Source of the DNA: Nemertoderma westbladi
Taxonomy: Eukaryota; Animalia; Xenacoelomorpha
Length of the DNA: 59,989 nucleotides
Assembly (NCBI GenBank): GCA_032718475.1
Contig: JAUCBJ010000755.1
Location: forward strand, 1 to 59,989
Direction: 5' to 3'
A program made the position numbers and the translations under genes. Below, piece by piece: positions 1 to 28,715 of this stretch (position 1 is its first letter; each line of letters starts with the position of its first letter). The notes under the pieces were generated by a model, which saw nothing but the letters and a program-made list of their open reading frames with translations, had not been told where the DNA came from and searched no databases.

Positions 1-1386
1 CCCAGAACTTTAGGTGACCCATCTAAATCACATGTCATGTACCAGTACACATATGGAGATCCCATCATTGTAGAGGACGTGGTTGATGACTTTGAAAGTA
101 ACGGCTTCAATCCTGATGACCTTGTTGCCAGAGGGAAAGTTAAAGAAAGAGAACTTAAGTGGTGGGGTAGATTCTTTTGGATATTGTCATGGAAAGCTAA
201 GATACTGATAACTCTGTACAATAACTTAATCAAAAGGAATATATTGAAGATAAACAGGATCATAACATATGGAAAGACAGAATCAGAAATAGATAGAGAC
301 ACTTCAGAGTTCGCAAAACTAGCAGGACAAGAAGGTAAAGAATTGTTCCTAGTTTCAGTCCATTTGGACTTGTCCAGCTGGAATGAGTTAATGAGAGCTA
401 TATTGACCAGCGAGATAGGCAGACAATTTGACAAGTTATTTGGATATAAATCGTACGCTTCGAAGTTGTTTACTTTTTTCCAGACGGCAAAAAAACTATC
501 AGCAGCTCAGTTGGCAAACTTAGCCCCAGCAGATCTATTGGGGGATGGCGAGCCAAAGAGTCTGGGAAATTGGAAATTTCATGAAGGGGGTGGACAGGGG
601 ATTCTCCAATCCATATGGACATACATCACTGTTTTAACAATAGATGCTGCTAAAGACGTACTAGATGCTCCTCTCCTTCACAACGGACAGGGAGACAACC
701 AGAGGATAATGATAAAATTTATGGTTAGTAAAAACCCGTTTTTAGCTAATGATGACAAATTACAATGTATGAAGAAAGTCGATTCATTTGTCAAAGACCT
801 TAAACTAAGATTTGCAAGAATAGGGCAAAAATTAAAACCAGAAGAAACGTTCGTTTCAACTTCCGTTTCAGTTTATGGGAAAGCAACCTTATACAAAGGC
901 GCTAAACTTAATATGCTCATGAAGAAGGTTGGTTCTATAAGAGATTATGGTGATGTTATGGAATTCTCTGCCTCCGCACTTACTGGAGCCGTCATAGCCA
1001 ATGTGGACGCTGCCACTGCCCAAACGTCTCTTGGGGTCACCCCCAGGTTCTTTTACCATTACTACATGAGAAGGATAATGGATCTGATCTCAGACAAGCA
1101 TCCAATGTTTCCTAACGGAGGATTGGTGGATTCCGTCAATCGACTAAAAAAAGTGTCATTGCAGGGAGCTTCGAAATTCTATCACTTTGACCTAAAATCT
1201 AATTTGGAATCACTAACAGTGGATGAACTCCGATGTGCTCTGAAAACAGTTGTCCCCTTCATTGGATCTTTGTATGGTATTCCAAATCAATCCTATACTT
1301 CCTCAATTATCAGGAACTTTCCGGATGCTCTTGGAACCTCAATGTACTTCCTTTTAAGCTCCTCTCAGATACCTCAGTTCCATTAA
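1..1386 (+). pseudogene. L: Endogenous viral element: Mononegavirales-like L protein, RdRp domain (frame open from position 1, so 5'-incomplete)
   Basis: Pre-motif A KERELKWWGRFF, motif A DLSSWNELMR, motif B EGGGQGILQSIWT, motif C GQGDNQ, then LKPEETFVSTSVSVYGK and RNFPD; no introns. Confidence 0.95.
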
Positions 1387-4300
1387 TAAGCAAGACCATA
1401 ATCCATTTACGCGGATTGATACCAGCCATATTCAAACCCCACATGATGCCTGAAGTTCATTCAAGAATGCTCATTTTAGATCCTGAATGTATAAACTCTT
1501 GGAAAGTTAACTCGATAGAGGGCTTTGTTCAAAACGAGTCCATGAGTTATCTCAGAAGCAACAAAGATAAAGTAAAACCCTCCTTATTAATAGATGCACT
1601 AGAGTACAACCCAGACTCAACCATGCGAGATCTGGCTGATGAATTGGTCAGTTTTAAACCATGTTTTCCCCGTGCGTTGAAGTTAATAACGAATGTGGCA
1701 ATTCCAGACTTGATTTTGAAATTTATAAGAAGGATAGCCAGTTGCAAAACACTGGTAGATATAGCCAGAATGACTAGGGGAGATAATGTCTATGACAAGT
1801 TAAGAACCAGAGAATCTTATATAACAGGTATAATATTCGAATCCATAGAAAATATTCCAGATGAAGTAGAAGTAGAACATGAAGACGATCCTTCTGAATC
1901 CAGCTCTGAATTACTCCAAAGACTGAGAGCTTCTTCTTTTAGATTAGATGTTGAGGATCTATTGGGGGTAACCACTCCAGACCCACAAGAACAATTTGAT
2001 TTGTTTGAAGTTTCTGGTAATGGTTGTCCTAAATGTCCAAAAATTGAATCCCATGAGAAGTCTATGTACATATGGGGATCAGTAGCTGCAAAAGGAAAGA
2101 CTTTAAGAGATCTTGTCTCCACCAAAGGACCATATCCCCATTATTTGGGATATGTTGTACATAGCAAGACTGTCAAGGCCAAATTCGAAAAACATGAACA
2201 GTTGGAAATTATAGGAGATGTTGTGGCGGTTATGAAACTCATAGGCCCTGTGTACCCAGAAGACTCATCGGTTGGTAAATTGATTTTGGGCTTGGTCTCT
2301 CAACTAATAGAGGATGTTCCTGGATTAATGGAAGTCCTATCCAACAAGTTCGCAGGAAATCCTGTCCATCGAGTGGACGACCCTCATAATCGCAGGGGAG
2401 GTCAGAACAACCTTAACATCAACTTCACTTCCCATGTCACAACTAGCTCAAATCCAATGAGTCACTCAGCTCGAGGAGGGGAAGATTACAACATCAACTA
2501 CCCGGCTACATTCTTAATGATGACTGATGAAATTCTAGATGATTTGATAAAGAAAACAGATGATCCCGACAAGCCTTTCACTCATGACTTCCATTACCAT
2601 TATCACCCTAAGGAGAAGGCTTTGGTTCCTCTACCCACGGTTGTGACCCCAACTGACTGTGATCCCGACCAGGCTGCCAGGATAGTAAAGATTCTGGACA
2701 ACATCAAGCCTCTAACTCAGAGAAAAGTTAAAGCTACTGAATATCTCAGATCAGTGTTACCTCCGGTTCTATACAATGTAGAGATTGAATATAATGACTT
2801 AACACCCATGGACCAATGGCATTCAGTTAGTTTCACACTAGGAGTGCTAAATGGACTATGGTCAACTCAAGTACTTAGACACGGGACAGATAATTGTGCG
2901 GGAGAGGCAGGGGGAAAACTCACTATAGGAGCATCCTTCAAAATACAACCCTACTATTACTTGATCGGGTTATTAGGGACTATTGTTGTGGATCTGGAAG
3001 CATCATCTTCCAAATCCAGGTGGTCAAAGGCTTGGGAGGAATTTTCATTGGAATTAAAGGAGCACATACTTCGGAAAAGTAATTACTCTGAGTCTTCCTT
3101 TCTACTGATGTTTGAAAACCAAATAAGACGCATATCAGAAATGTTACCAAACTTTTCTCCTCCCAAGACTCCACTGATGGGGTCTAATGATGGGCACGAA
3201 ATGATACAACAGGCTCTAACAAGTATAGTATCTAGCGTTGGATCTTATTCTAAGCTTGGGAATCTGATCAATAAGCGAATCATAAGATTTAATCAAGTTC
3301 AGTTAGGAGGAGGCTTATTCTTTCTGAGATTTGGGTTCGTCTCTCTGTGCCATTGGGATCAATACAAAGACAACCAAAAATTCCTTACTTCTAGAATCTT
3401 GTCGGAAGGTTGCCCAGGATTCAACCAGAGCTCATCCACATGCATGTGGACAGAATCAGAAGTCTTAGAGCATACGTGCGCTCGAATCTTTTCAGATCCG
3501 GTGATATCTAAGGAACTGCCAATAAATGCTATAAGGGGATTCATAGGGACTGATTCTCTAATAGATTCTCTAATGTCAGATGTTACTGTGATTCCTCCGC
3601 AGTCCCAAAGTCAAGCTCATTATTCACCACCTCCATTCCCTGAACTAAATAACTTCTTGTCTACCTGCATAGATATTACGAATGAGAAAGATATAACCAC
3701 TAGAAGGAAAGACATAGGATCTAACAAAACCACAGATAACTTGGGAAGTATCAACAGATTCAAGTACGACATGGAAAACACGAGAGTTTGGGTGGATAAG
3801 TTAGTCTGTCCCACGAGCAGCTATATGAAATTTGACGACATACTGAATATGCCAGAGTTAGTTAAAGTTTGTAGATCATTTAATAGTGTAGTCGTTTCTT
3901 CCTACGGAGACGGCATGGGGGGAGTGTTCTTTTATGTAGCAGCTAGATTTCACTCCAAATTCCTCATGGGTCGCCTGTCAACTCTAGCATTGGCTCATGA
4001 TTTTCCTAGACAAATGGGTTGTGAAATTAACTTTACCGGACTTAAAATGTGTGCCGAGAGGCTCAATTGGAGAGAAATGAGAAAGTTATTGGAACTCAGT
4101 GAGAAAATGCTCCGACTTAATGGTGGAGATATAGTCAATCCCGGAGTGACAGCATCCCAGGAAGCATCGTTTGATTGTACGAGTGACTTGGAAATACTAA
4201 CTTTGGATGCTGACTTGAAAGATCTTCATTGGGGATCTTCAGGAGGATGGTTTCAGAGAGTCCTTGTGGAAGTATCAAGCATAAGAAAGTCGAAAAATTA

Positions 4301-5210
4301 CTTAGTAATAAATAAAGTTTACAAGGAAGAAGGAGAATTGTTTTTTAGATTAGTAACTAGTGTCAATGACTCATATTTCTCTAGCTCAGTCGTGTCGCAT
4401 TTAGTGAAGCCTATCTCTTCAAACGGAGGGAGCCAAGAGTATTACAATGTCACGTTGGTGCCTCTCTTGGTGTTAGACTCCTTTGTATCATGGCTAGAGG
4501 AAAACTTCAACTTTCTCCATTTACCTAGCACTGATAATATTAATAGCCTAGTCCAGCACAACATAAGAGTATCTATTCTTAGTAAGCAAAGATACATCCC
4601 ATTTCGTGAAAGAGCTAAAAGAGTCAGAGATTGGTACTCCCTGTATCTAACTCCAATTTTAGGTCATCCTGAAACCATAGCAGCACAAGGGCTGTTTTCA
4701 TTTGCAGAAGGATGGCAATTGGAAGAACTGTCGATATTGGCTGCTAAACAGGAGCCTAAAAGTATCATAAGGAAAACAGTCACCCGTCCAACTGGTCGTT
4801 CTATTATGACAGATGCCAAGGCTTTCAGATATGCATTCTTATTGCTTAAAGGGATGCTCCCCAATGCAAAAGAGGATGTCTTGGAATTTTTGATAACCAA
4901 AGTAGTGGTTGAAGGGGGATTAATCTTCTTCAAAGGAAAACAACTTGACAAGAAACCCCAAAAATATGTCCTACCTATCTTCTCGAAACCTTGTTGGAAT
5001 GAGCACTTGTCATCATCGATAATAGGTCCTGTGTCTTCCACCTTCTTCTTTCGTATTGACCCTGACAGGATTCTAGATAAGACTATGAAGCTCTCGAGAA
5101 GAGAAATAGGGGAATGTTCACCTCCTGATGGATCTACATGGGTTGTACATCCGGTGGATATTAGGGTTATCAAAGTGCCAATCCACCAAATTAGTAATGG
5201 AATATTATAA
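1350..5210 (+). pseudogene. L: L protein C-terminal part (PRNTase capping domain, connector, methyltransferase, CTD), after a frameshift near 1350-1380
   Basis: ORF 1233..5210: GPYPHYLG, GNPVHR (HR motif), DYNINY, MTase motif YGDGMGG with a K-D-K-E-like tetrad (YMKF, DAD, NKV, SQEYY). Confidence 0.92.
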
Positions 5211-5217
5211 AGAAAAA
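5205..5217 (+). terminator. Putative viral gene-end/polyadenylation signal overlapping the L stop codon
   Basis: TTATAAAGAAAAA, similar to TAAGAAAAA-type gene-end signals of mononegaviruses. Confidence 0.55.
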
Positions 5218-5323
5218 TCACTAACTATATCTGTCTTGCGAGATATCAAATCAACCTCCGACCAGTTAGAACAACTTAAAGGCTTGTTTATAAGATACCT
5301 ACTGGAGAATTACAATGAGACAT

Positions 5324-5700
5324 TGTAAAGTAAAATGGTGGATAATAGGGTGTTAGTCTACTCGCAGGTAGCCCCGCCATAATCTGATTTAATCTCCTTG
5401 CCTTCACCTTCCTGCAAATGAAACACCTAGAAATAATTTGTCTACATAGAATTTGTAGATTGTTAATGTGATACGATTCACGTAATTTGATAAGCATTTG
5501 ATTGTAACTCGCATGAAATAATGCTAGGTGTGTACTGAGTATTAAATCACGAACTATGATATGTGACTTATCAATAATGATAGGGTAGGCTGAGTCATAT
5601 GAAATTGGAGCTTTACAAATGCGGCTACCAACCCGTAATAAACCATCTCCTGAAATAAATGGGCACAATTTAGAAATATTACTAGAATGTTCAATGTTGA
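5324..5700 (-). mobile_element. BEL/Pao LTR retrotransposon pol fragment (integrase HHCC zinc-binding region)
   Basis: SSNISKLCPFISGDGLLRVGSR...PIII...H...H...CFICRK...IMAGLPASRL...PPFYFT; homology stops just before the expected GxD of the catalytic core; clearly diverged from the element at 20497-28641. Confidence 0.9.
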
Positions 5701-6679
5701 TCTTTTAAAAATGGATCGCCATGCTCACACACAAGATTTTTTTAACTTTTTTTACTCCTTTAACATACTTGTTAACATACGCGCTAGACCTTTACCGGAC
5801 TCGTTTTATGGGATCAAAGATCACCCTTATTACGTCAATTTAACCCAATATTACATGGTAAAACCGGAAGATCCTACCCATAGTCTGAGGTTTCTACCAC
5901 TAATAAATCCTCTCGATCTTGTCGAACTCGAACAACTGCAGAAACATCTGGATCAGTTAGTTAAAGTAAACTCATTTCGAAAACCATATAATGTTTCCAG
6001 AATAGAGAAAGAAATAATACCTCCGTATAATCTTGATGGATTCATCAAAACTCGATTAGTACACTGGAATCTTGACGTGTTATTCGAGGAGGAAAGAATA
6101 CAACGATATGGAGATGTGGAAACATATACTACCCAATACTTAAAGTATAGAGATCTACCTAATGCTAGCGAATGCGCTACCTTGTGGCATCCAGTGGGAA
6201 TGACTCTCGAAAACGCCACTAAAGAGTGGAATGAGACTCTTAACGTTATCGAGATGTATGGAGTTGTCACTTACGATAACGAAGGTAGCGTTCCTGTTGG
6301 AGAACTGGGAACTACGCGAATGATACACATACGAGGACTCGCTGGTTCTACCCACGTATTTACTCGAGCGTGTTCCGATGTGATTGATTATTCTTTTGAG
6401 ACTCTTACGGAGACACAAAAGAAACTCCGACATGGACAATTCGAACTCGCGCAGCGTTACGTCACCGACACCGAGCGCAAACCAGCCATGGGTATCGATG
6501 GATCGATGTTACCCCAGCCCGTGCTCGAGATGCTGTTTAACGAAAGAATCCTTAAAATCGGCTCAGCTGTTTATGGAGACCTCCAAAACGACTTTCGGAA
6601 CATGGAAAACATTCCAATAGGGAAACGTCCAATAGAAGACACTAAAATAACCAAAGAAAGTGACGACAGTGTTCTGTGA
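5687..6679 (+). CDS. Intronless ORF with a C-terminal, truncated DEDDy 3'-5' exonuclease-like domain (WRN/EXD2/RNase D-like)
   Basis: ExoI-like VVTYDNEG; LPQPVLEMLFNERILKIGSAVYGDL resembles the ExoII region; no ExoIII YxxxD before the stop. Confidence 0.6.
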   Translation: MFNVDLLKMDRHAHTQDFFNFFYSFNILVNIRARPLPDSFYGIKDHPYYVNLTQYYMVKPEDPTHSLRFLPLINPLDLVELEQLQKHLDQLVKVNSFRKPYNVSRIEKEIIPPYNLDGFIKTRLVHWNLDVLFEEERIQRYGDVETYTTQYLKYRDLPNASECATLWHPVGMTLENATKEWNETLNVIEMYGVVTYDNEGSVPVGELGTTRMIHIRGLAGSTHVFTRACSDVIDYSFETLTETQKKLRHGQFELAQRYVTDTERKPAMGIDGSMLPQPVLEMLFNERILKIGSAVYGDLQNDFRNMENIPIGKRPIEDTKITKESDDSVL

Positions 6680-6930
6680 AACTGAACGGACACAGACGGT
6701 GAATAAGTTTGCTTCAGTCGACTATAGTCAGGATGGATTAATGATTTATCACATCCAAGCAGGAGATAACTTCCAATAAAATGTAAATGTATAATTAATA
6801 CTGTGTACCTGTTGATAAATTTCACTTATATTCGATATAGTACATGATTAAAATGTATAAATGAGTATCCATAAAATCCTTTCTTCACATATCAAACGCT
6901 AATAAGTTGACATCATGTAACAAAATGACA

Positions 6931-7071
6931 TACATCATTGCTTGCAAAGGTCACTTTTCAGCGTTAAAGACCATTGTTTATTGATGTAAACCTCCCTCGC
7001 TGCGCTCGCTCGGTACATAAATAAACTCGGGTCATAACGCTGCAAAGTGCTACTTTGCACACAATGATGTA
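6931..7071. repeat. Imperfect palindromic MITE-like element
   Basis: Arms of about 42 bp (tacatcattgcttgcaaagg...aagacc / ggtcataacgctgcaaag...caatgatgta) around a central cctcgctgcgctcgctcgg. Confidence 0.65.
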
Positions 7072-8199
7072 AATAGTTATTAGATTTAATTAATACGGGA
7101 TAAAATTCACATTATATTTAATAGGCCTATACATAATTGTTACATTAGGGTAAGAGGCAAAACGTCTACATTTATGTCTCCAATATTTGAATTACTGGTG
7201 GGGGATGGAATTCGTAGGGGTCGTAAGATGTATTTAGGCTAGTCTATAAACTAATCCCCCACCAATGACAAAATGTTGATAATGAAGTGTATAGTACGTG
7301 AAATAGTGATAAGTTATCCTTCCTAGAGGTACCGAACGGTCATACATTATTTCTTAAAAAAGCATAAACTTTAATCGCTTGTCAGTGAGAATTTATTAAA
7401 ACCTGTTGTTATTTACAGTATTGTTATTTACAATTTAACATATTTTGTTTGCACAAGTTTCGATCTTCAAACGGCTGAGACATCCAAATAGTGGCGCAAA
7501 TTGACCATTAGTGAAAAGGTATTGTTTAATGTTTTGGGTAGAAAACACCGCCACTAATGTTTGAAATTTAAATAAATTCATTTTTTAAATCATCTAAAAA
7601 ACACATATTTTGTATTTCCGGTCACTTTGCGCCATTAACTCGAGAAATCACATCCGCGTTTTTGACTGTCGGTCATAAGTGATAATAATTATCTATAACG
7701 AAAGCCTTAAAATCGTCTAAAAACTACTTATTGTACAACTCATAATCAGAAATTACACAAAAGTGAATTGTATGCGTTATTGTAGATATATATATTTTTT
7801 AAAATATCTGCAGTCGGACTGGCCCCAGGGGTGGTGGAAACACGTCCGCCTCGTGGGTGTGCTTCCGGGAGGAGCCCAGAAGGACGAAAGCGGTGATGCA
7901 GATAGATCGACAGTAGACGACCCAAGAAGGAGGACTCGCGATTCTACCGATGTCACACCATGTGCATTGCCAGTACCGCGAACGGAAATACCGGAAGTCA
8001 TAGCGCGTGGCGACAGTAGAACCGAAGACTTCCTTACCATCCCGTAAACCAGATCGCGGGAACTGGACATGGTAAGTTTGGCTGGAAGCCATGAGAACAA
8101 TATTAGGAGTATAGGAGGACACATAACTCGATTACCCCAGATTACTTGAAATATCGGAGAAGGTTTTCGCATTATGCGCGAGTTAACTGCCCCGATTGA

Positions 8200-8237
8200 C
8201 CCCCCCCCCCCCCCCCCCCTGGGTTTAATAGGGTTAA
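8200..8237. mobile_element. Possible piggyBac-like element terminus
   Basis: C20 tract then tgggtttaataGGG-TTAA; no partner end recognised. Confidence 0.3.
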
Positions 8238-8330
8238 GTCATTTTTAAGGCAGGAGCTACAATACCAGAAAATAACTCATATCAAAGATGAAGATTTGAA
8301 GTAAAAAGTTACCTATACAAAGTCAACTTA

Positions 8331-8777
8331 ATGTTAGTCAACTTAATGGCGGAAAATCTTATAATTATGATTGGTGATGATTGTGGCAGTACATCTAAAA
8401 ATGTCATTGTTTTTCCATGTGAAGATGTAATTATGGAAACACTCCATTGTGAACATAATATTGAACCATTGATTAGGCCTATAGATGAGTCATTTGGAAC
8501 ACAACACCAGCCAAGATATAAATTTCAAACAAACCAATCTGTGGCTGTCATCTGGGATGAAACCAATAATACTAAACAATGGTAAATTTGTTTTTATATT
8601 GATGAAAACGAAAATGGTTCTATTCGTGTTGATCATTTAACTCGATCAGCTGCTTCTCATGACTGTTGGCAATGGCCAAAGGTTGATGACATCCAAGATG
8701 TTATTGATCTTCAAGTATTACCAGTTGTTATAGATGGTTTCTGGAACTTAAAAAGCATAAAATTAGAAATTTCATAG
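8331..8777 (+). pseudogene. Degraded coding remnant, probably from a DNA transposon protein
   Basis: Protein-like frame continues past the TAA at 8583-8585: VAVIWDE..W*..VDHLTR..WQWPKVDDIQDV..QVLPVVIDGFW. Confidence 0.35.
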
Positions 8778-9254
8778 AAATTGAAAATGTTTTTAGAGAA
8801 ATCTGTTGAAATATTTCAATGCTGTTGTTTTTTTCTAAAAGAAGTTTGTAAGCCCTGATTTCAATAAAGAAGGTCCTCTAAAGCTTTCAAAAGTTTTTTT
8901 CCATTTTTCAACAACTTACTATCTATAAGCTCTGCAATACAAAGACTTCCAGGGACCAGGATATATGATCAACCAAATAAGACTCCTTCACATCTGTATT
9001 ATCAAGACTAACTAACAATTGGCCAAATTAATCGATTATACCTGCAGGGTGAAGCTGGGTTTTGAAAAAACATATTACTAAGGTTGCGTGCAATGCTTTA
9101 TTTGTGTAATATTTGTTAAATGAATTATTAATTATTAATATTAACTTTATAATCTACTATATATATCTACTTTAACTAAATAAATTATTAAAAACACTCC
9201 CACGTATTATAATCTGCGGTACTGCTACTGCTACTGCAGTACTGCGGTATAAAC

Positions 9255-10097
9255 GTGTACCTGTCTGCATGTCTGCATGTGTACTGCTACATGGCCAAAG
9301 AAAGAAACTATTATCGTTGCCTAGGTGTAACGCCGGAACTAGTGAATGAGATGTCGGATGATGAGGCTCCTGTGACAATTGGCGCACTGCGCCAACTCAC
9401 GAAAACTAGGCTACGCACGATTACGAAAGATAAACTCATTGAGATAATCTCGGGAGATGATTCTTTGCCGGCAACTCGATCCGATATAGTGGATGTACTT
9501 AAGCTTAACAATGATGTAATTATTGAAGCAGTAAAAAGGGAAATCATGTCGGATGTTGAAAAAATCGTAGATAATGCCAAGGATGACATGAGACAGGAAC
9601 TCGATGATAAACTCTCTGATATGCAAACCAAGGTACCAGTACATATTATGGCCTTTGGAGCTAAGTTCGAGGTTGGCGAGGATACGCTCAAGGTGGCAAA
9701 ATCAATTGTCTCGACTACTGGCTACACAGGAGATTGTGTTATTAGCGCACAACGTGTAGGTGCAATGGCAAATCCACCAATCCGCATCCAGATTAAGAAA
9801 AGTGAAGATGCTACCGCTATACTAAAGGTGCGAACGAAGCTCCGCGGATCGGCATTCAAGTCAGTGTACTTGAATCCGGAAAAGAGCAAGGATCGACTTC
9901 TGATGGAAGCGAACTTCAGAAAGCTCATTGGTAGGGACAATCAGGAGCAGTTGTCTATGTCTCCAAACAGTAGACTGGTGGATAAAAGGGTCGTCGGAAC
10001 CATGCGTAACCAGGGGCAACAATCAGGACCAACCGGCGATGGACGAGGAGGTGGACGCAGCTGCGGGGCCCGCGGTGGACCTAATGTTCAGAATTAG
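9255..10097 (+). CDS. Non-LTR retrotransposon ORF1
   Basis: Coiled-coil segment, then RVG..PPIRI..LRGSAFKSVYLNPE (LINE ORF1 RRM/CTD-like); lies directly upstream of an APE-RT ORF. Confidence 0.75.
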   Translation: MYLSACLHVYCYMAKERNYYRCLGVTPELVNEMSDDEAPVTIGALRQLTKTRLRTITKDKLIEIISGDDSLPATRSDIVDVLKLNNDVIIEAVKREIMSDVEKIVDNAKDDMRQELDDKLSDMQTKVPVHIMAFGAKFEVGEDTLKVAKSIVSTTGYTGDCVISAQRVGAMANPPIRIQIKKSEDATAILKVRTKLRGSAFKSVYLNPEKSKDRLLMEANFRKLIGRDNQEQLSMSPNSRLVDKRVVGTMRNQGQQSGPTGDGRGGGRSCGARGGPNVQN

Positions 10098-12200
10098 GAC
10101 TGCGGCCTCCAGCCGAACATTAGTGAAACTCTACGACTCGGCAGCTGGAACTGCAATGGATGGACGACAGCAAACTCAAACTTACGTGAAACAATCATAT
10201 CCGGTATAAATCCGGACATATTAGTTATGTGTGAAACTTTCCACAACAGGTCGGATGATCTCGCCTTCAGGGAGTTCGTCTGGTTTGGAAATGCACGACA
10301 AACTGTGAACAAGCGTGCAAAACGGGGATCGGGTGGAGTCGGTTTCTTCGTAAATAGATCTTTGCTCAAAAACTATAAAGTTTCGGTTGTTGATACTTCT
10401 CCCGAGGGAATAATATGTGCAATATTTAGGTCTCTAGATACGGATCACTCTATGTTGCTTTGTGGGTGTTACCTGCCACCTGAGTCGTCTGTTTATGGAC
10501 GTGATTCCATCGACTTCTACGCCCATTTACTATCCCAGATTTATCTGTACGGTAACTCGGTGGAGCAAGTTATAGTTCTAGGAGATCTAAACGGAAGAAC
10601 CGGGAATCTAGCTGACACTGTGTTTGATTTAGACCCTGACATTCCTACCCGCTCAAACGTGGATAGTGTGACAAATTCACATGGTAAAGCTCTCGCTGAC
10701 AGCTGATTTTGCACTGACAGCTGCATGTTTATTGCTAACGGTAGAATCCCAGCCGGGCAGTACGGTAGTAATGATGATTTCACTTTAGTAAATGTAAGAG
10801 GGAAATCTGTAGTTGATTATGCACTTGTATCTACAGAAAACTACTCAGATTGCGAGTCATTTTCAGTTTTAGCCAGTACTGATTTAGCGATAAAACATAA
10901 TTGTGTTGAACTCTGTACTGATAGTTGCAGATTACCCATCATTCACTAATACTGCTAGAAATACGCACTCATACCTTAGATAATTATAATGAACGTGGTA
11001 CAAATCTAGGAACTTGGATGGGGGATAATACTGAATCTAAGTTCGACACATATATTCCAAGAAAATACACTTTTTCTAGGCATGCTATACCTACTGATAC
11101 TTTAAATAGTCAAATCTCTTGGGGTGCGATTAATAAATTGTGCGATAACATTATAGTAGCTAGGGGGGAACAAGATACAATTGATCACTTATACACCACT
11201 ATTAGCAAAACTATTTCTAGGGAATTGGAAGTTTATGTTAAACAACAAAACTCTTCTAGCCCCCGAGTTAGAAAGCAGTTTAAATATAAAAAACCTTACT
11301 GGGATGCCGAGTTAACGGCACTCTGGAAGATTTTTCATCAAAAAGAACGTGATTTTCGAAAATGTACTCATGTTAACACCAATTATAAATCTGTACACTC
11401 GGAATTTTTATTAGCGCGTAAAGAATTTGATAAAACATTACGCCGTAAACGTAGAAAGTACCAAACTGATCAGGCCAATAATATTGAAAAATTAAGTTCA
11501 TCCGGTCAAAAAGATTTCTGGGATTGTTTAAATAAACTAGGACCTCGGAAAAATGTAGACATACCATTGGAAGTACATAGGAGTACTGGTGAAATTATTA
11601 ATAATATTCCTGATGTAATTAATGCTTGGAAGGACGATTTTTCTACGTTACTTAACCGAGCCGACTCGGGTAAAGCTGACACAGACTTTATTGAGCGAGC
11701 TTTGGGGCAGAAAACTGAACTCGAGTGGTTTATGGAAAGTTGTTCGTTTGAGACTGACAGTCCGCTTAATGTTCCGTTCACAGCGGATGAAGTACAATCA
11801 GCCGTTAATAAGCTAAAATACGGTAAAGCAGTTGGTTTTGACGGTTTGCCTAATGAATTCCTTAAATTACCTGGACTGTGTAACTTACTTGTTGAACTCT
11901 TCAATTATATTTTTGATACTGGCAAAATTCCGTCGGTTTGGCAGCAGGCTCTTATTAGACCATTTTATAAGGGTAACAGCACAAGTGTTAACGTACCATT
12001 AAATTACAGAGGAATTAGTCTTCTACCGTGCATAAGTAAGTTATTCACTTCTATATTGGATGTTCGTTTATCCAAATTTTGTGAAGTTGATGAATTATTG
12101 TCTAACGAGCAGAATGGTTTTAGAAAAAATCGTAGTTGCTTAGAACACATCTATACAATACATTCCATTACTTCTATTAGGAGAACAAATGGGTCTTCTA
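10098..12200 (+). pseudogene. LINE ORF2 (APE endonuclease plus start of RT), disrupted and 3'-truncated; clade uncertain (RTEX/L2-like)
   Basis: SWNCNG, MCET, GSGGVG, CYLPP, GDLNGR, VVDY; KAVGFDGLP, NYRGISLL, EQNGFRKNRS; stop at 10704-10706, frameshift near 10930. Confidence 0.9.
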
Positions 12201-12201
12201 C

Positions 12202-12490
12202 TTTAGTGTCTGGTTGGAGATGTGTGCATTGTACTTGACACAATGAACCCGGCGTAGCATTCTTGTGAATGTGCCATCCAGGGATTTGGTGTCCTCAGCA
12301 GTTAGAGCCCAGCATGGACTCCCATAGAGGAGTACTGCAACTACTGCTGCTCTAAATAATCGTACCTTAAATTTCTGATTAATTCTCGGTGACTTCCAAA
12401 TCCTGGAAAGCCTATTCAACGCTGCCCATGCCTTTCCCTTACGTATTCGAAGGTCCTCACCTGACTTCCGGATCCATGATCCCAGGTAAC
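12202..12490 (-). mobile_element. RTE-like LINE internal fragment
   Basis: Near-identical reverse complement of about 59315-59600 (LNRLSRIWKSP...LLYGSPCW). Confidence 0.9.
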
Positions 12491-12494
12491 ATAA

Positions 12495-14978
12495 GTCTAT
12501 AGATAGATAGATTTATTTATACATTATGTAAAAACAATAACAAATACACCAAACAATGTACCGGTATAAAGGTATTGTCCAACATAACATATAGGATTAC
12601 CCCTAAAGCTTTGCAGCTTATTTCCAAGGGGGTCCTTTATGTTACTTGGTTACAAATACAATATTACACTACGCTAACCTAAAACCAATATAAAACGTAA
12701 TTACACTATGTACATGTACAACTTTACCGAGAGCGTGACAATGCCCGACTCAACGATAAAGATGTAATGTACAGAACAATTTATTATAAAACGTAATTAC
12801 AGTATAAATAGTAAATAATTAATAAACTAATATCTTACTGTAGGACTATTGTACCTATTTTTACATTGCACACGGAGATGAGATTTAACTGCAGATTTAA
12901 AAGAATGTCGATTATTTAGGTTTTTAATTTCATTAGGCAGAGCGTTCCAATTTTTTATGCCGTTAAAAAAGAAAGTATCAGATTCAAAGGATTTACAATT
13001 CGGGAGGTAGAAGTTTGAAGCACTAGCTCTGGTACTGTAAGAGTGTGTATCGCGTACTCTGTTGAATTTTTGTTTTAGGTAATTGGGACATTTACCATTA
13101 TACACTTTATGCACATGGTTAAGGCGTAGCTGCTTAACTCAACTATCTAAGTTAAGTAGTCCAGATTCAGAAAAGTCATCTGGAGTTAGGTGGTGCCTAG
13201 GTTTGTAGTCTTTAATAAATCGTACTACTTTATTCTGAGCTACTTGTAATTTACATTTAAGCTGTTTGGTTAAGCCTTCATACCAAGAAGAGCACGCATA
13301 GTCCATGTGACACTGTATTAAAGAAGAGCAAAGTAACTTGCGGGAGTCGGTGTTCAAACTATTTTTATTTCTGTATAGAAACCTAAGCCTACTGTTAACT
13401 TTCGAGAAAATATTTTTCACTGTACTTTCTCCTGATAAGCAGTTATCCAATGTGGCGCCTAAATATTTAACTTCCTTTTTATTTTCAATCTTATGTCCAT
13501 TACTAGTGACTTCAAACTTAGTTACCTTCTTTAACTTTCTTTTGGAACCAAACAAAATACTTTCAGTTTTACCGTAGTGAATGGATAGCTTATTATCAAC
13601 CAACCACTCATTACAGGATTCTAGAACTGCACTTAACTTTTGGGAAATATGGATAGGATCTTTATGAGAGAAAATAAGAGCACTGTCGTCGGCATATAAA
13701 ATGAGTTTAAAATCGGGATCTATACTACTTATCATATCATTTACATAGCATACAAAAAGCAGAGGACCTAATATACTACCTTGCGGTACACCACAGGTAA
13801 TCTCTTGTACAGTAGACAGCGATTTGCTAATGACTACAGTTTGACCTCTGTCTGACAGGTAGGACTTGAACCAGTCTATAGAACCTACACCCATCAGGCC
13901 TAACTTACCAAGCAGAATTTCGTGATCTACAGTATCGAAAGCCTTTTGTAGGTCCAACATTACCATACCAGTATATAAACCCTTTGCGTTATTACATCTA
14001 ATTGTATCAGTTAAGTTAATAAGGCAGGTGTCTGTAGAATATGATTTACGAAAACCGGACTGAAGTTCATAGATCAGATTTAGCCTACTAAGATGTGCCT
14101 CCAGCTGTAGAAAAACAGAACGTTCTAGAATTTTAGATACAATACTTAAGATACTAACAGGTCTGTAATTACAGGGTTCTACTTTACTATTCTTTTTATA
14201 CAGAGGAACAACCTTAGCTAATTTCAGTTCGTCTGGTACTACATTATCTACGATAGAGTAATTAATAATAAAAGTAATAGGCACTTTAAGTACTTCAGCA
14301 CCATCCTTAAGAAAACGGGCAGGTATTAGATCTAGACCGGTACTTTTTGAGGCTGATAGGCTAAGTAGATTTTTAAAAACAAATCCTCAGAAACGGGTTT
14401 TAAAAATAACTTTTCTGAATTTTGTAACTTTTCTAAATAAAAATTATTTAGAGTTTCGGACCCTATACTATATTTATTACTTGATAACGGTAATTTCTTA
14501 ACTAAATTAGAGGCAACGTTAGTAAAATAATTATTAAATAAATTACTAACTAGAGTATGATCATGAATCAGCTCACCGTTATCTTGCAGAACAATATTCG
14601 ATTTAGATTTAAGGTTTTTATAACCTAAAGATTTTAGGGTAGACCATAGACTTTTAGGATTATCTTTATTCTCACTTATTTTGTTGTACAAATATTCAGA
14701 TTTAGCTTTTTTTATTTCCCGTTGGACAAGGTTTCTATATTTGCAGTAATTATTATAATCAGCTAAAACACGGTATTTCCTAAATTTATACAAATAGTTA
14801 TCTCTTTCTCTGATATTACTAAGAATACCCGAGGTCATCCAGGGCTCAGTGCGTTGTTTAAGACTAATTTCTTTAATTGGTGCTACAGTATTAAGTGCCT
14901 TTAAAAATATATCTTTAAAAACAGTGTACGCAAGGTTAATGTCAGCGGCCTTAAAACAGGGTTCCCAGTCAGAATTAA
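12495..14978 (-). mobile_element. 5'-truncated CR1/L2-group LINE with 3' UTR and (ATCT)n tail
   Basis: RT ORF 13139..14284 ([38 protein letters not shown]), with adjacent pieces 14332..14994 and 12827..13114; ends AATAAA-(ATCT)n on the minus strand. Confidence 0.92.
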
Positions 14979-15581
14979 CAGTCAGGGAAAACATCCCCGT
15001 GGGGATATGTGAAATTTAGGCTTAATTTCTCAACCTATCCTAGTCAGGATAGATGACATATCCCCACCAGGATAGATGGCACATTTTCCATTTTTTCGGT
15101 TTGCGCAAAAATTGGTTGGATGGCTATGTATTTCTTCGGTATTACAATGATCAATAGGTTACAAAAATTGTAAAATTTCACGCCCTTGTCATTGGTAAGA
15201 TTTATAAGAAGATTATAGGGGTTTTAAATTCACATTGATTTCTATCCTGCTGGGGATATTATCGACATATCCCCAGCAGGATATGTTTTATTTATATCCT
15301 GGTGGGGATATTTTGGATATATCCACAGTAGGATATGTTATAGAATAATATGTGTGTTTCCTATTCAGCATATCCTATTCAGGATATGCTAGGCAGTTGC
15401 TGGTGTGGGTGTTTCTACTGTATAGGATTTTGAGGGTGAAAGACATTTGATTTATCTGTCAGTAATTGTTAGGCAAATTATTACGAAACTGCAGTCTGAA
15501 TACTGGTAGGGCTACCGGTACTTATTAGACCCTATTACGATAGTTTGTTCTGTACCAGAATAATTCTGATTATTAATTATT

Positions 15582-16031
15582 TTGATAATGGCTTCCGGTG
15601 CGGTAAATATAGGGCCTAAAGAACCACGGAAGGGCCGTGTTGAAACTTGCTTCTGTTCCAATTTATCCGATCTATGCTCAACTGAAACTAGTGAAAATTT
15701 TTACACGAGGAATAAAATTTTCGAACTTCTTCTTTGGGTCCAAAATCCCAAAAGCTATGTTGGACCATTACATACCAGGGAGTCTATGGTAATGAATTAT
15801 GTAGATTCGTCCAAGTTTGGTGTCATGGTTAGAGCTGCCACTTCGCCTGCAGCATCTTACCCCACTCAACAGACAATCATACAGGCATCTTCTGTAGACT
15901 TCCCTGAAGTGTCGCCGTCTAAAGATATATGTATTGCGATAGATAACTTTCAATTTGTAGGCAAAACCTACCGCCTTTTCAATAAGGGTGTACCAATAAG
16001 CAAGGTTTGCTCAGTGATCAGCATACCTTAA
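15582..16031 (+). pseudogene. Possible transposase remnant inside the TIR element
   Basis: 149-aa ORF with IAIDNFQFVGKT; position inside the TIRs. Confidence 0.35.
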
Positions 16032-16454
16032 TTGTCAGGATTTATTAATTCAAAGGCACCCAATTCAGTCTGTCAGTTCATTGACCTAACTGGATTGGAT
16101 GTAGCCGAATGAGTGGAGGCCTTTATTGAAATTGAATTGATTGTAACATTGTTTATGTTACATTTAACATAACGTAACTATATTTAAATTATATAATATT
16201 AAGTCTGTACTGGTGTCAAAATATATAATGCAACTATCAGACTATCCCCAAAGGCATAATAATTAAAGAACCCAAAAATAAAGTAAACTGAAACTAAAGG
16301 TGTAGGCCTACTAAGGATTGAACTAAGTTGTCCCTTCTTCTTCCAACGGAAGTTGTGGAGGGCACTCCCCTTCGCCTTCAGTAATGACTGGGGGTGATAA
16401 ACCCGTTTCTTTCTAGCGCTAGCAGTGGCTGATGATTCATCTGGCTGTAGTTCG

Positions 16455-17110
16455 TGTTGTCCACTTACTCCATCTATCTCTGACATCATCTGTCCATCCA
16501 CTCCATCTACCCCCAGCACCTCCTGTCCATCCACTCCATCTACCTCCGATATCGCCTCTCCACTCACTCCATCTATCTCCGACATCCCCTGTCCACCCAC
16601 TCCATCTACCTCCAACATTCCTACACCTCCTGTCCATCCACTCCATCTACCTCCGATATCGCCTCTCCACTAACTCCATCTATCTCCGACATCCCCTGTC
16701 CACCCAATTTCATCTACCTCCAACATATCCTCTCCATCCACTCCATCTACTTCCGATATCGCCTCTCTACCCACTCCATCTATCTCCGACATCCCCTCTC
16801 CACCCACTCCATCTACTTCCAACACCTCCTGTCCATCCACTCCATCTACCTCCGATATCGCCACTCCACCCACTCCATCTATCTCCAACATCCCCTGTCC
16901 ACCCACTCCATCTACCTCCAACACCTCCTGTCTGCCTGTCCACCCACTCCATCTATCTCCGATATCGACTCTCCACCAACCAGCCAACTCCATCTCTCTC
17001 CGACATCACCTGTCCACCCACTCCATCTACCTCCAACACCTCCTGTCCACCCACTCCATCTACCTCCGATATCGCCTCTCCACCCACTCCAACATCCCCT
17101 GTCCATCTAT
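16455..17110. repeat. 36 bp C-rich minisatellite with 108 bp higher-order trimer
   Basis: Recurring cactccatcta(c/t)ctcc core; three alternating unit types. Confidence 0.85.
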
Positions 17111-17168
17111 ATCCATCTATCCAGTTAAGTTCAATCAGTCAATTTGTCTGAAGTTTAGTATGTTTACT

Positions 17169-17420
17169 GTATATACAGTTATAGTTCATATCCGTACCTC
17201 TGGTATTTTCGTATTGCAAAAATAAGACTATACGTATGAAATACCCTATGTTATTTTGAGATATTGTTTATTGTTTTGGTTAGAAAAGCCCACCACTGTA
17301 ACCTGCTCCTTTCCGTTAATTAAGTAATGGAGATTAGTTTATTGTTTTGGTTAGAAAACACCACCACTGTAACCTGCTTCTTTTGCCAGAGGTACGCATA
17401 TGAACGATAACCGTATATAC
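17169..17420. mobile_element. MITE with about 35 bp TIRs, Tc1/mariner-like TA context
   Basis: gtatatacagttatagttcatatccgtacctctgg / ccagaggtacgcatatgaacgataaccgtatatac (3 mismatches); internal ~40 bp direct repeat. Confidence 0.7.
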
Positions 17421-18104
17421 TGTACAACTCTACTGTAGACAGATATACCGGTATCAGTGTACTGTACAGACTGAGTTGTTGAGGGACTACCAGACTACAG
17501 GTCTACCCTTCAGTCAGCCAGGTACCGAAGTAGACTACCTATTATACCGGTTGTTATATTACTTTCGCACAGAAGGCAATACAGCATTAAGGCTACCAAC
17601 TAACATCTACGTGTACGGTACGTGTAAGCTTAGAGGCAATCCTTCTGGGGATATGCCACAAAACTTACATAAAACAAGCTACTGGCTGACTGGCAGACTG
17701 GTACATTATTCTAAAACATAGGCCTATCCTAAGACTGAAGATGTCCAAAATATCCCCACCAGGATATAAATAAACATGAATGAACTTTATCGTGAAACAT
17801 ATCCCGCTGGGGATATGTTGATAATATCCCCAGCAGGATAGAAATCAATGTGAATTTAAAACCCCTATAATCTTCTTATAAATCTTGCCAATGACAAGGG
17901 CGTGAAATTTTACAATTTTTGTAGCCTATTGATCATTGTAATACCGAAGAAATACATAGCCATCCAACCAATTTTTGCGCAAACCGGAAAAATGGAAAAT
18001 GTGCCATCTATCCTGGTGGGGATATGTCATCTATCCTCACTAGGATAGGTTGAGAAATTAAGCCTAAATTTGACATATCCCCACCGGGATGTTTTCCCTG
18101 ACTG

Positions 18105-18608
18105 CATGGGCATGTTAACAGAAAACAACAACTTCAATGGGATTCCATCTGTCCATCAATGTATATTTACATTTACCGTATGTGTTAGGCTTGTTAGCCG
18201 CTAATTCAGTGATTACAGAATTACAACAAAGGAATGAATAAGTTGCATGTCCAATCAGAGTTTCAAAATAATTAATAACAAAATTAATGTAAATCAAGGA
18301 TTAATAAGTAGATAAGTGTATGTTACGGCCGGTACTGCACTTTTGCGTTTTTTATACAGATTGGCCTCAACCGGAAGTTCCGACATTTTTAGTTATGACG
18401 CGGACATCTGCCATAAGGGTAATGCAATCAGTAGTAAAGCAATAGCTGATTGGCTTCCTGCCTTAGCAACTGCCTATCGCTTATTGGACGATTGTATCAG
18501 CATAAATTAGCATAAATGTGTGAGGGATGTTTGAATTTACATACTGTACAGTGTAATCTAAATATCTTTTTTAAAAAATGTGGGCCCGTCAATAATATAA
18601 TTTTATAC
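18105..18608 (-). repeat. Direct repeat copy 1; candidate 3' LTR remnant of the BEL/Pao element
   Basis: Highly similar to 30995-31485; left side cut by the TIR element. Confidence 0.6.
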
Positions 18609-18818
18609 CGCTCCATAAAAACAGGACTAAAGAGACTGTTTTTACAAGAGACTGTAGAGTGACGGAATCCCAATTTTTTATTACAAAAATAGAATGCCTA
18701 AGGCGTACCTACATATTTACAAATACACAAAATATAAATTTTAGAGCGTACTTAATATTACACCTTGCACATAATATACTTTCAGTTCATTTTCAAATAA
18801 TAATTAGGGCCAATACAC

Positions 18819-19087
18819 ATAAATCTTACGGAATATGATAAAGCATTCACTCAAAAAATATATATAATTGAATGACAGTATGCGCCACCGTTTACTGCAA
18901 TATAACCTTCACCAAACACCAAATATAACAAATATCTACATGGATAGGACTACATATAAATCTTACGGAATATGATAAAGCATTCACTCAAAAATTTTTA
19001 TAATTGAATGACAGTATGCGCCACCGTTTACTGCAATATAAACTTCGCCAAACACCAAATATAACAAATATTTACATGGGTAGGACT
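18819..19087. repeat. Tandem duplication of about 137 bp
   Basis: ataaatcttacggaatatgataaagc...taggact occurs twice. Confidence 0.85.
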
Positions 19088-19555
19088 CTAGTAGGAATAC
19101 ATTATTACGTCGCGATTCGAATAGGGCTGCCGATTAAAGTATCGGCCTTCAGAGCTGAGATTTTATTAATAAAAATTAGGGCATTTTATATCGACTAAAA
19201 AGGGGGGGTGCCGCGTTCGCCCAGGACTATTCGAGAGGTTAAAGTCCATCACTGGGGCGAATATTGCGCTATTTCGGGCCGGAGAGAGCTCTAACTCTCC
19301 CCTTTACCCCGCGGCATGATTCTGATGAGAGGTTGTCCTAATGGATCTTGTAGCAAACGTGCCACGCCCTATAGCTCTGGCGCTACGCTCACCGACAGGG
19401 ACGCACACGAGCTGCGACTGATAGAAAATGGTCGTCGGGGAAATATACATTTTGGGTGAGGTCGACTTGGGCGCTCAAGATGCATGGATCCCAGTTGGTC
19501 TGGATTCCCAGGGAGTATTCGTCTGGATGTAGTAGTGCCCCGCTCCTGACCCACG

Positions 19556-19825
19556 CTATCCTCGTTTCAGTTCCTTCGACACGGTCTTAAGTAGTAGAAG
19601 ACCACCTGTGATTGGACCTGCATTCAAGTACCTCCTGATCTTCTGCGCTTTTATGATCGCGATCGCACAGCGGAGATCCTTGTTGGTCAGCTGTAGATTC
19701 TCGTCTGGTTGGCTTGAGCGATATCCCATAGTATCGAGGTGATAGTCAAAATGATTCCCATAGGGAACCTCGTGCGGATTTCCCAAAACATCGTACGCGA
19801 TTCTCGTTTCATCTTGGGAATCCAT
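19556..19825 (-). CDS. Small ORF downstream of BEL pol, function unknown
   Basis: 89 aa, ATG start, same strand as pol, coding-like composition. Confidence 0.3.
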   Translation of the reverse strand: MDSQDETRIAYDVLGNPHEVPYGNHFDYHLDTMGYRSSQPDENLQLTNKDLRCAIAIIKAQKIRRYLNAGPITGGLLLLKTVSKELKRG

Positions 19826-20496
19826 GTTATTTTGGTCAAAAGAGTACCTTTATCTAGGAGAAAAACTCAGAATAGAATAAGAATGGGTTCATAGACTTTC
19901 GGCTCGACTGTGTTCTATACCTCCGACCTGTAGCCTAAGATCAAAGGTGCCTATAGCGACGGTTTTGTTATAAAATAAGTATATAGGCGCTGTTCAAAAA
20001 ATGCTTGAGGGGCAATCTAGCCGCGAGAAAAATACTCGCTTTTTGAACCCAAAACTACATCCCAGAGAAAATATGCAGTAGAGTGTTAGTCATAAGTATC
20101 ACAAAAAATGCTTGTCCCAAGATCTGGGTTACCGTCGCATCGACGTTGAATCTTGGGCGGACTGTCCACCAGTCGGAATCAACCATATCGCCAACATCTG
20201 CCCACCTGTGAGACTGAATTTTCCTATCAGCGTTCACATTCGAATGAATCATCTAAAAAATTGTCAAAATTGTCCGCTTGTGGGTTCAAGTAGAATTCCA
20301 TTGTTCATGTCCAAAACCGCGTAAATAATTTATGTGTAATATATATTTTGAATACCTGTAAGGATACTCTGAAGGGTACACATTTTTAGACAATGGAATT
20401 CTACCTCTGTCTCTATTTCTACTAAAATATAGATCATACTTACGTGTGTTGGGTGATGTGGTGACCCGTTGGTGCCATCGTAATGTCTGAAGTAGT

Positions 20497-23400
20497 TTAG
20501 GATGCTTGCGGAGGACTCCTGGGAGACTTGTAGTCTCCAGTCCTGTGCCGCGCTTCCTCTAGTAGCACTAACCTTTGCACTGGCCTATCTACTTTGCGGT
20601 TATCAATAGTCCTTACTGTTACAGTCCTGATCACGCCGTCTGGTGAAGGGTGTGCTTTCTGGATTACTCCCGTCATCCAGAACCTACGTTTAAGGTTTGC
20701 TTCTGCTAAGAGCACGTGGTCACCCTGTTGGAGATTACGAGTTTGCTGGTACCACTTAGTCCTGGCAGAGATAGAGGGCAAATAATGATCTTGCCATATC
20801 TCCCAGAACTTACACGCCAACAGTTGCGTCACCTTCCAGGCCTTGCGACAATAAAGGTCTCGGTCGTCAGGTATGGACGTTGGCAATAGTGACGTAGGTG
20901 ACTGCATGAGTAGATGGTTTGGAGTCAGTGGGAACTGGTTATCTCCGTCGTCGGGAACGAGTGCGATGGGTCTAGTATTTAAAATGGACTCTATCTCGAC
21001 AAACAAGGTGGTCAGTTCATCGTCTGTTAATACTCTGTTAACTGGCAAGGTCTTAGTCATTGTTGTTTTGACTGATCGGATCAGTCTCTCCCAAACCCCA
21101 CCCCTCCATGGACTGGCTGGAACGTTGAAGTTCCATTCAATCCGCCGGGGTTGGAGTTCTTTAGAGATCTGATCACGGTCTAGTCCATCCAAAGCTCGTG
21201 TGATCTCATTTCGTCCTCCTACAAAGTTCGTCCCACAGTCTGAGTGGAAAGTCTTTACGAGTCCGCGTCTAGCTATAAATCGTCGAAGGGCCAAGATAAA
21301 TGCGTTTGTCGTTAGGTCAGTAACACGCTCAATGTGTATGGCTCGACAGGCCATACACGTAAAGATCAAACCCCACCTTTTTACCATTACTCTACCTCGT
21401 TTGGTGTCGAAAGGACCGAAACAGTCGATTCCTGTCTCGGTGAATGGTGGTTGATATGCCTTTATTCTTGCCACGGGTAATTCGCTCATGATCTGGACAC
21501 CTATCCTGGAATGAACCTTCCGGCACACAATACACCCGCCCATTACTGAGGTTAGAGCCTTACTTGGTCTTATTAGCACAAACCTGTTTCGTAGTTGTGA
21601 GAGGCAGTGATGCCGCCCAGCGTGCTTGAGTTGGAGGTGTGTATCTAATATCATGGCTCGTTGTAACTCTAGCTGTTGTGGAATTATTATAGGGTACCTA
21701 AATGTAGCAGTTAAGTCTGTGGTCTGGAGTCGTGATTTGTGACACAGTAAACCGTGGTGTATGATAGGACTCCAGCTGAGAATGGGTGAGGACTTGATTG
21801 GACGACCCTGGGAGATGGCATTGAACTCACTTGAGAAATATCGCTGTTGGTAGTGGAGAAGAATATTTGTCTCACAGGCGTCCGTCTCTATGGTGGTTAA
21901 TTTCCTTGGGAAGTTACGTTTGCCGCCTAGGTATTGAGTGAAACGGCGTAACCAGGCCGTCTTTCTGCAGGCATCCCTCCAGGAAGCTGTTGTATTTACC
22001 AACTTGTCGTACAGTTGTCGAGTGGCATCATTGGGTGGTTGAGTAGCAATGTTTGGTTTGGAAGGTGAATTAATCAGACCCAAAGGCCTGTTCTGAACAA
22101 GGTTACCTTCTAAAATCTCGCATGTGGCTGAGACCCGCCCGGTATGTCCGTCTGGGTCAACTGGTACTTCTTCCTCCTCGGGTAGTTTACCCCTTTCAAC
22201 GCTATCTCGTGAATCCATCTGTAGTGGAGGTTTAAACTCGTCGATATAGATGGGTGTTACGTGTAGACTTTCGTTTGCAGTAGAAGTTGTTGTTATAGTG
22301 GTTGGTTGTGATGTCGGGATGTTACGTGACCGCAGGGTGATGCATGTTTCCACTTGGGTATTTAGAATACTCCGCTCCAATGGGTTTACCGCAGTGGCTG
22401 GGTCGTTGGTTTTATGGGAGGTTGTTATGAGTGTGCCCGAAGATCCACTTTGGGTGTGTCCTTTCTTTGGTTTGCCAGTCGTCTTTGACTTTGACTTCAC
22501 TTGGGTCACATGTTTAACTTCGGCGTCCTTAGGTAGACTATTTGATTTGGCGTCAAAGAGCGGTGGCCACTGGTCTCTCGGCTTAGTTAGGAAGGCAGGA
22601 CCATATAACCAAAATTTTCTTACCTCTGGGTCGCAGAATTCTGATGGCATCATCCCTCTAGAGGCTATGTCTCCAGGGTTTTGGTCTCCAGGACAGTGTC
22701 GCCAGTCTTCCTTGAGGGAATGATCGAGGATTTCAGCCCTCCGGTTAGCTACAAATGTTTTAAAATTGACTGTCTCACTGTTGAGGTAGAGGAGCACAAG
22801 AGTTGCATCAGTCCAATAGGTCACGTCTAAATTACCATCGAGCTCGCGCTGAATGAGTTTGGAGATATTAATAGCCAGCATTGCTGCTTGAAGTTCTGCC
22901 CGAGGGATGGTCATATATTTCATGGGCATTGTCTTTGCCTTCGAAGTTATAAGTGATGCTTCATAGACGTCTGGTGCCACCTGTCTACGTAGATATGCCA
23001 CTACCCCTAATCCATTCGTACTTGCGTCACTGAAACAGTGCAGTTCGATGTTGAGTGGGTACACTGCTTGTCGAGGGAAATAGACCCGAGGAATGACGTA
23101 GTCGGTGAGGAGTGGGAGCTGGTTCTCCCATTCGTTCCACTGCTTTGCTTGTTCCATGGCTATAGGTTCATCCCAAGTTAGCCCTGCCTGCCAGATGTTG
23201 CGTAAGTAGATGCGGGCTTGTAGTATGACAGGACTAATAAAATTCAAAGGGTCAAACAAGCGGCTCATGGTGGACAAACATATCCGCTTTGTGAGAGGTC
23301 CCGAGTTGGTGTTGACTTTTACGCAGACCCGGAAATTGTCGGAGTTGGGGTCCCATACTAATCCCAGTACCTTTGTCGTTGGCATTGACTCGAACTGCAG

Positions 23401-28641: not shown

Positions 28642-28715
28642 TAAATGTATGTGGGTAGGTGATAGTGGTCTGTAGCTAACTGCTACACTTACCTTTTCCT
28701 ATTGTAGTATAATGT

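Follow-up and report, generated by a model that had tools for sequence, protein, structure and literature searches.

How does a piece of a negative-strand RNA virus come to lie directly against the interior of an LTR retrotransposon in opposite orientation, and can the enzyme and the viral strand responsible be read from the join? The question is raised by the left end of the stretch of DNA analysed here (59,989 nt in full, hereafter the window), where a viral L gene is continued by a BEL/Pao integrase fragment (Table 1). What is said of the enzyme and the viral strand that make non-retroviral EVEs comes mostly from neighbourhood statistics. A young junction with the continuations of both partners visible in public data offers a usable test case for capture versus later deletion. 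Our verdict is that the locus is a young virus-LTR retrotransposon chimera, derived from a divergent virus and of an already documented kind. In our literature search, outside of which most subscription papers and supplements lay, no paper was found that describes this locus or an L-BEL junction resolved to the base outside insects.

Table 1. Positions of the features around the L-BEL junction.
Feature	Position	Strand	Basis
L polymerase, RdRp core piece	1..1383	+	PF00946 E 9.1e-39; frame switch in codon scan
L capping domain and C-terminal part	1227..5177 (coding from about 1350)	+	PF14318 E 3.6e-20 (1227-5207)
Direct match of L 5153-5167 to BEL 5337-5351, 14 of 15 nt	5153..5351	+	Shuffle P 0.005-0.01 near the junction, 0.11 over all L
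L coding downstream of the frameshift, open over 49 codons up to the junction (former "trailer")	5179..5325	+	Open frame, codon score, variant-B differences
Apparent stop and gene-end motif, out-of-frame by-product of the frameshift	5208..5217	+	TAA 5208-5210 inside TAAAGAAAAA
AT-rich hairpin of 8 bp across the junction	5310..5328		Stems of at least 7 bp absent from L 50-5300; weak, post hoc
Crossover zone, at most 3 nt fitting both virus and BEL	5324..5326		Variant-B contigs fit to 5326, BEL-side contigs from 5324
Internal BEL/Pao integrase fragment (zinc-binding domain), 121 codons, stop-free	5324..5687	-	PF17921 E 2e-6, PF09337
Short piece of a third sequence, with other flanks elsewhere in the genome	5690..5763		Loose ends at 5690 and 5763 in X1-X3
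Very high-copy repeat fragment bearing an ORF	5770..6679	+	Summed depth about 2200-3200x the 8256-8500 baseline

The L fragment and the supposed trailer

Positions 1-5326 of the plus strand are coding sequence for the L protein of a negative-strand RNA virus, the 5' start of which lies before the window. The homology to an RNA virus protein that an EVE assignment calls for is provided by PF00946, PF14318, rhabdovirus L matches, and Atlas clusters of negative-strand RdRp, the latter matching L at 0.95-0.97. The best solved-structure relatives of the core piece are the L proteins of VSV (E 3e-21) and rabies virus (E 9e-21), and the C-terminal part aligns with rabies L 1111-1331, in which alignment the junction falls near the expected end of L. 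The gene is open across 1316 codons and carries two frame breaks, one at about 1330-1385 in the codon scan and one near 5177, which closes the long L frame. No close relative was found in the collections searched (one of these searches being word-limited), only distant rhabdovirus L matches. L is mononegavirus-like and may belong to the Mononegavirales or to the Jingchuvirales or other Monjiviricetes. No viral gene besides L was identified within the window, and no Rfam family matched positions 1-20000.

Of six public runs listed, the four that contained sampled words of the stretch (X1-X4) were compared with it over 3500-8500 and 4950-5765; no RNA run was among those listed, which carries no weight as to expression. 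The contigs of these runs cannot show absence, and their depth does not equal copy number. Two variants of L are present: variant A is near-identical to the window, and variant B, seen in X1-X3 over window positions 3536-5326, is 87.6% identical (208 differences in 1684 nt). Between samples, variant A shows 0 differences in 1661 nt and 4 substitutions plus 2 gap letters in 1684 nt. Variant-B contigs, 1893-1895 nt long, continue for about 1.76 kb past 5326, unbranched and at low depth. No contig was found in which variant A continues past the junction; the run-on contigs have the depth and the differences of variant B only, and contigs show presence only. Relative to the nearby baseline, depth is 1.7-5.4x for variant A and 1.1-1.8x for variant B, a weak hint, depth not being copy number, at several copies of variant A. 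Among the variant-B differences in 4982-5114, 17 of the 22 listed (out of 39 in the record covering this segment) lie at third positions of the long L frame. This bias points to divergence under protein-level selection, so that A and B most likely diverged as replicating viruses, and it suggests two separate captures of related virus strains. L would then record two strains of a virus lineage without a close relative in the collections searched.

The sequence-only reading had let L end at 5210 with a stop and a gene-end-like sequence, followed by about 105 nt of unassigned sequence as the genomic 5' trailer, and concluded that the enzyme had copied the viral genome to its 5' end and run off onto BEL RNA. 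The letters agree with the reading in that the TAA at 5208-5210 is present within TAAAGAAAAA and that there is no poly(A) at the end of L. Both stop and motif are nevertheless frameshift artefacts rather than a gene end. Variant B, as well as variant A in X1 and X2, differs in length from the window at 5176-5177, and variant A in X3 is the same as the window; the frameshift of the window copy is thus derived. No stop interrupts the frame following 5177 before the junction (49 codons, shuffle P 0.018), and the first stop of this frame, 5326-5328, is created by the join itself. A codon-usage model trained on L, which chose the true frame in each of 33 held-out L blocks, gives 5212-5322 a score of 5.9 bits in the open frame versus -15.2 and -18.7 in the other two; when stops are ignored, the scores are 5.9, -2.9, and -0.6 (the best of the three frames has shuffle P 0.008). 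The best-scoring frame switches between 5140 and 5170 and is constant from there to the junction.

The comparison of variants is consistent with this result. Past 5191, 9 of the 13 variant-B differences are listed; those in 5221-5289 fall at codon position 3 (six of the nine), position 1 (three), and position 2 (none), with P 0.04. Over 5191-5326, the 13 differences give an identity of 87.7% once the shared unitig start of 30 nt is set aside, against 87.6% for L overall; the segment is thus viral and has changed at the same rate as L. A5 runs number 10 in 1-5323, that at 5208-5217 included. Each of these tests is modest; all agree with the indel, and together they show 5211-5323 to be L coding sequence downstream of a frameshift. 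A frame without a stop cannot be the end of a genome, and a captured trailer would be non-coding sequence after an authentic L stop, for which the coding 5211-5323 leaves no place. The junction lies inside the L frame, with no authentic stop before it.

The run-off of the enzyme at a genomic trailer is accordingly regarded as refuted on present evidence, with hardly any probability left to it. It would fit a viral segment whose linkage to L is seen in variant A as well as in variant B, and a window copy with a stop and an A5 run at 5208-5217; it is contradicted by the length difference at 5176-5177 among copies, the open downstream frame with L codon usage (P 0.018 and 0.008), the third-position bias (6/9, P 0.04), and a divergence equal to that of L. 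A host-repeat origin of 5218-5323, which the sequence-only reading had named as a threat to its own proposal, was rejected as well: the segment is not high-copy, its depth resembles that of L, it is shared with variant B, and no match of at least 12 nt was found elsewhere in the window. Post-insertion frameshifts can thus mimic viral gene ends, and with the preserved trailer the proof of genomic-RNA run-off is lost.

The junction and its right flank

The direct junction of virus and BEL, with the partners in opposite orientation, is crossed by contigs in three of the four runs, namely X1 and X2 (sample S1) and X3 (sample S2), from two studies, and not in X4. The other mark of an EVE, presence in the DNA of independent samples with host sequence attached, is hence found, the junction-bearing runs being of DNA kind by the guess of the tool ("DNA?"). 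Each junction contig has 30 letters on the BEL side, one fewer than the 31 that the rule of the tool requires; such a length is to be expected where a unitig stops at a branch. Over 1661 and 156 nt, X3 does not differ from the window, of which it may be the source, so that the independent support of the junction comes from one sample (S1). In X4, BEL is present and L was not seen; this run is shallow, and its contigs show presence only. Junction depth follows the depth of variant A in three runs (260/345, 53/55, and 80/86), from which most variant-A copies seem to carry the junction.

The integrase fragment on the opposite strand had been noticed from the letters with a break at about 5324, which proved to be exactly 5324; its right end is 5687, where contigs depart, rather than 5700. 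Other contigs depart from the window at 5324 in X1-X3 and at 5687 in X1-X4, and we infer that they represent the uninterrupted parent BEL, as the branch at 5324 lies where integrase homology stops, just before the T-G-I-D of the full element, and X4 has BEL without L. The fragment is about 99% identical to copies in the runs (3 differences in 312 nt). Its homology to a BEL/Pao polyprotein was established against the full element at 20497-28698 (36% identity, E 2e-17), which carries PF05380, PF03564, and PF18701. In the search for the parent family, this full element was excluded as parent, the protein identity being 36% only. A further branch of the BEL fragment occurs at 5405, 82 nt from the junction, in X1-X3, and leads into a different sequence of at least 255 nt.

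Both partners break internally, at 5324-5326, and neither an LTR end nor a TSD was found at the junction. Since the break lies within the integrase and lacks both, the junction is not an insertion boundary; a plain BEL insertion was rejected on these grounds, and the TSD evidence for an independent BEL insertion, by which the earlier proposal could have fallen, did not turn up. An internal element break without an LTR end or TSD is what a template-switch chimera should have. The mapping of breakpoint and microhomology, recommended by the sequence-only reading, thus yielded a break and a small overlap of at most 3 nt, the chance probability for an overlap of at least 3 nt being 0.06. The overlap shared by virus and BEL is possibly shorter than 3 nt, as 4 of the 13 variant-B differences are unlisted and variant B is not the actual donor. 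The 14-of-15-nt match between L and BEL is a possible docking site, a post hoc and weak observation for which chance may account.

To the right, at least two further joins, 5687/5690 and 5763/5770, bring together unrelated pieces within 450 nt of the junction, making three joins in 450 nt when the L-BEL join is counted. A contig over 5687-5690 exists in X1; the X2 contig continues differently, with a depth that gives no second path. As X2 has the L-BEL join and no contig over 5687-5690, there is a hint that the L-BEL join is the older of the two. The L-BEL join is so the shared core and the right side variable, as far as contigs, which show presence only, can tell.

Other copies of the repeat at 5770-6679 diverge from it at 5770 and at 6616. 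For its ORF of 300+ codons, no homolog was found among 1.84 billion representatives or in Pfam, and the single-sequence predicted fold of the ORF (5711/5771-6676) has a pLDDT of 30. The L-trained codon model scores this ORF in its own frame at 0.096 versus 0.145 bits per codon, a positive value that any AT-rich coding frame might give. There is no support either way for a second viral gene here, and the repeat may carry either a captured gene that became amplified or an unknown transposon protein.

Possible origins of the junction

The explanation to which we lean, at somewhat less than an even chance, is a template switch, by which an endogenous L piece was joined inside its coding sequence to the interior of a BEL/Pao integrase in opposite orientation when the BEL RT moved from genome-sense viral RNA onto BEL RNA. 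Viral RNA would have been co-packaged in a BEL particle, and cDNA synthesis would have proceeded from left to right along the plus strand of the window, with the viral (-) RNA as first template. The RT would then have switched to BEL RNA across the overlap of at most 3 bases and continued towards the 5' end of the BEL RNA, after which the chimera would have integrated into the genome. The BEL cut at 5687, the repeats at 5690 and 5770, and the frameshifts would be secondary and later.

In favour of such a switch are the internal integrase break and the youth of both partners. L is open and near-identical between samples, and the BEL piece is stop-free and about 99% identical to other copies, so that both parts look young and little time is left for two insertions plus a deletion. 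The polarity, from which a genome-sense RNA template had been deduced, holds as an argument only if the enzyme switched while making the minus strand on BEL RNA; the same sequence would result from a later deletion or from a switch onto mRNA in plus-strand synthesis. With the junction inside the L frame and no authentic stop, the only ground on which genomic RNA could be told from mRNA as the template is gone. Furthermore, nucleocapsid-coated genomic RNA is a poor template, which counts against the genome-sense strand. A LINE-mediated mRNA retrocopy would carry a 3' poly(A) and a TSD; here, L is broken off internally at its 3' end and continues into BEL, with no poly(A) and no TSD. Short overlaps at internal switch points together with partial capture are a published signature (PMC5131818), and virus-LTR element hybrids arise in infected mosquito cells without sequence homology (PMC6797480). 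Against the switch stand the overlap of at most 3 nt, which is under the 6-bp median of PMC5131818, and the enrichment of same-orientation pairs among Aedes EVE-LTR elements (10.1101/127498). The further joins at 5687/5690 and 5763/5770 and the branch at 5405 also count against it, as they indicate that deletions or patchwork repair act at the locus. The interpretation of RNA-virus EVEs as mRNA-derived (PMC2987831) counts against a genome-sense template.

A viral insert and a BEL copy might instead have been separate neighbours, until a later deletion, repaired by microhomology-mediated end joining, took away the end of L together with the 3' part of BEL. The patchwork character of the locus, where three joins fall within 450 nt and a branch leaves BEL at 5405, would suit this course of events, end joining fits the short overlap and the junction hairpin equally, the opposite orientation requires no special template, and ectopic recombination has been proposed for EVE regions (PMC5497376). 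As both parts are young and nearly unmutated, and as no contig has variant A past the junction (contigs showing presence only), we hold a deletion to be rather unlikely, if well within reason. The chimera might also be BEL-driven and derive from viral mRNA or antigenome, through a switch in plus-strand synthesis, an antisense BEL transcript, or cDNA recombination. The junction inside the L frame, with no mRNA-excluding sequence present, allows for this, and L mRNA is naked, EVEs usually matching single transcripts (PMC2987831); fragments in both directions inside one EVE also occur (PMC7522710). Such an origin needs a switch that is rarer in LTR element replication than minus-strand copy choice, and appears unlikely to us. 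Least credible of all is that a contaminating virus contig was linked to host DNA by an error of assembly: the bridging contigs are short, X3 is possibly the source of the window, and L was not seen in X4, but the runs are of DNA type by the guess of the tool, the junction occurs in two samples and two studies, and L has frameshifts.

The template-switch reading finds its closest parallels in known RNA-virus fragments that abut LTR retrotransposons, with which the locus shares the adjacency and for which template switching has been proposed. In mosquitoes, the association of EVEs with LTR elements is documented, including Pao with chuvirus (10.1101/127498, PMC5497376, PMC7642597). Compared with the Aedes pairs, in which the same orientation is enriched, the break is here base-resolved, the continuations of both partners are seen as branches, and the orientation is opposite; compared with known EVE-LTR cases in general, L is without a close relative in the collections searched. 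The virus-LTR hybrid vDNA of infected mosquito cells (PMC6797480) likewise involves internal, homology-poor recombination of viral and element RNA, but those hybrids are episomal and combine positive-strand viruses with Ty3 and Ty1, whereas an integrated negative-strand L is joined to BEL here. In LTR-mediated retroposition of host mRNAs (PMC5131818), the captured piece also replaces part of an internal ORF, with a short overlap at the switch point and possible later amplification; the median overlap in that source is 6 bp, whereas one switch point with at most 3 nt is seen here and no LTRs bounding the chimera are in view, the left end of the viral insert lying before the window and BEL being cut at 5687 on the right. 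Anakin Pao elements (PMC7642597) resemble the locus in the combination of BEL/Pao with negative-strand virus sequence. They carry a chuvirus glycoprotein in potentially active elements, whereas here a broken L in antisense replaces the integrase core, so that the product of the chimera cannot be autonomous.

In the fullest form of the account, a BEL/Pao RT captured the genome-sense strand of an unclassified negative-strand virus, in an animal that is perhaps no arthropod, the non-autonomous chimera was copied several times, and a second, 88%-identical strain was captured separately. Taken as a whole, this sequence of events is improbable in our estimate. If true, it would mean that LTR-element capture of RNA viruses, including the normally encapsidated strand, reaches beyond insects at base-level resolution.

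Other features of the window

The eukaryotic DNA of the window is rich in repeats, among them LINE-like RTs, a full BEL/Pao element, and long minisatellites. LINE-like elements with endonuclease and RT matches lie on both strands (9213-15015 and 57413-59883), so that the region does not form a cluster of one orientation; 12204-12497 matches 59308-59601 at 97% identity, the two being inverted relative to each other. A pair of inverted repeats of about 400 nt (14979-15349 and 17705-18104, 89% identical) encloses a 153-codon frame and a 33-nt tandem array and is possibly a DNA transposon. The full-length BEL/Pao element on the minus strand (18105-31485) measures about 13 kb with long non-coding parts, and its 2733-codon frame (20497-28698) lies between direct repeats, 18105-18608 and 30995-31485, that are 94% identical and likely LTRs.

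Minisatellites with the distinct periods 38, 19, 51, 37, 60, and 49 extend over 33291-56093. As a weak hint at a host other than an insect, the 60-nt unit contains CCCTAA and the 51-nt unit AGGGTTAGG, motifs that we take to resemble the TTAGGG telomere repeat and not the insect TTAGG.
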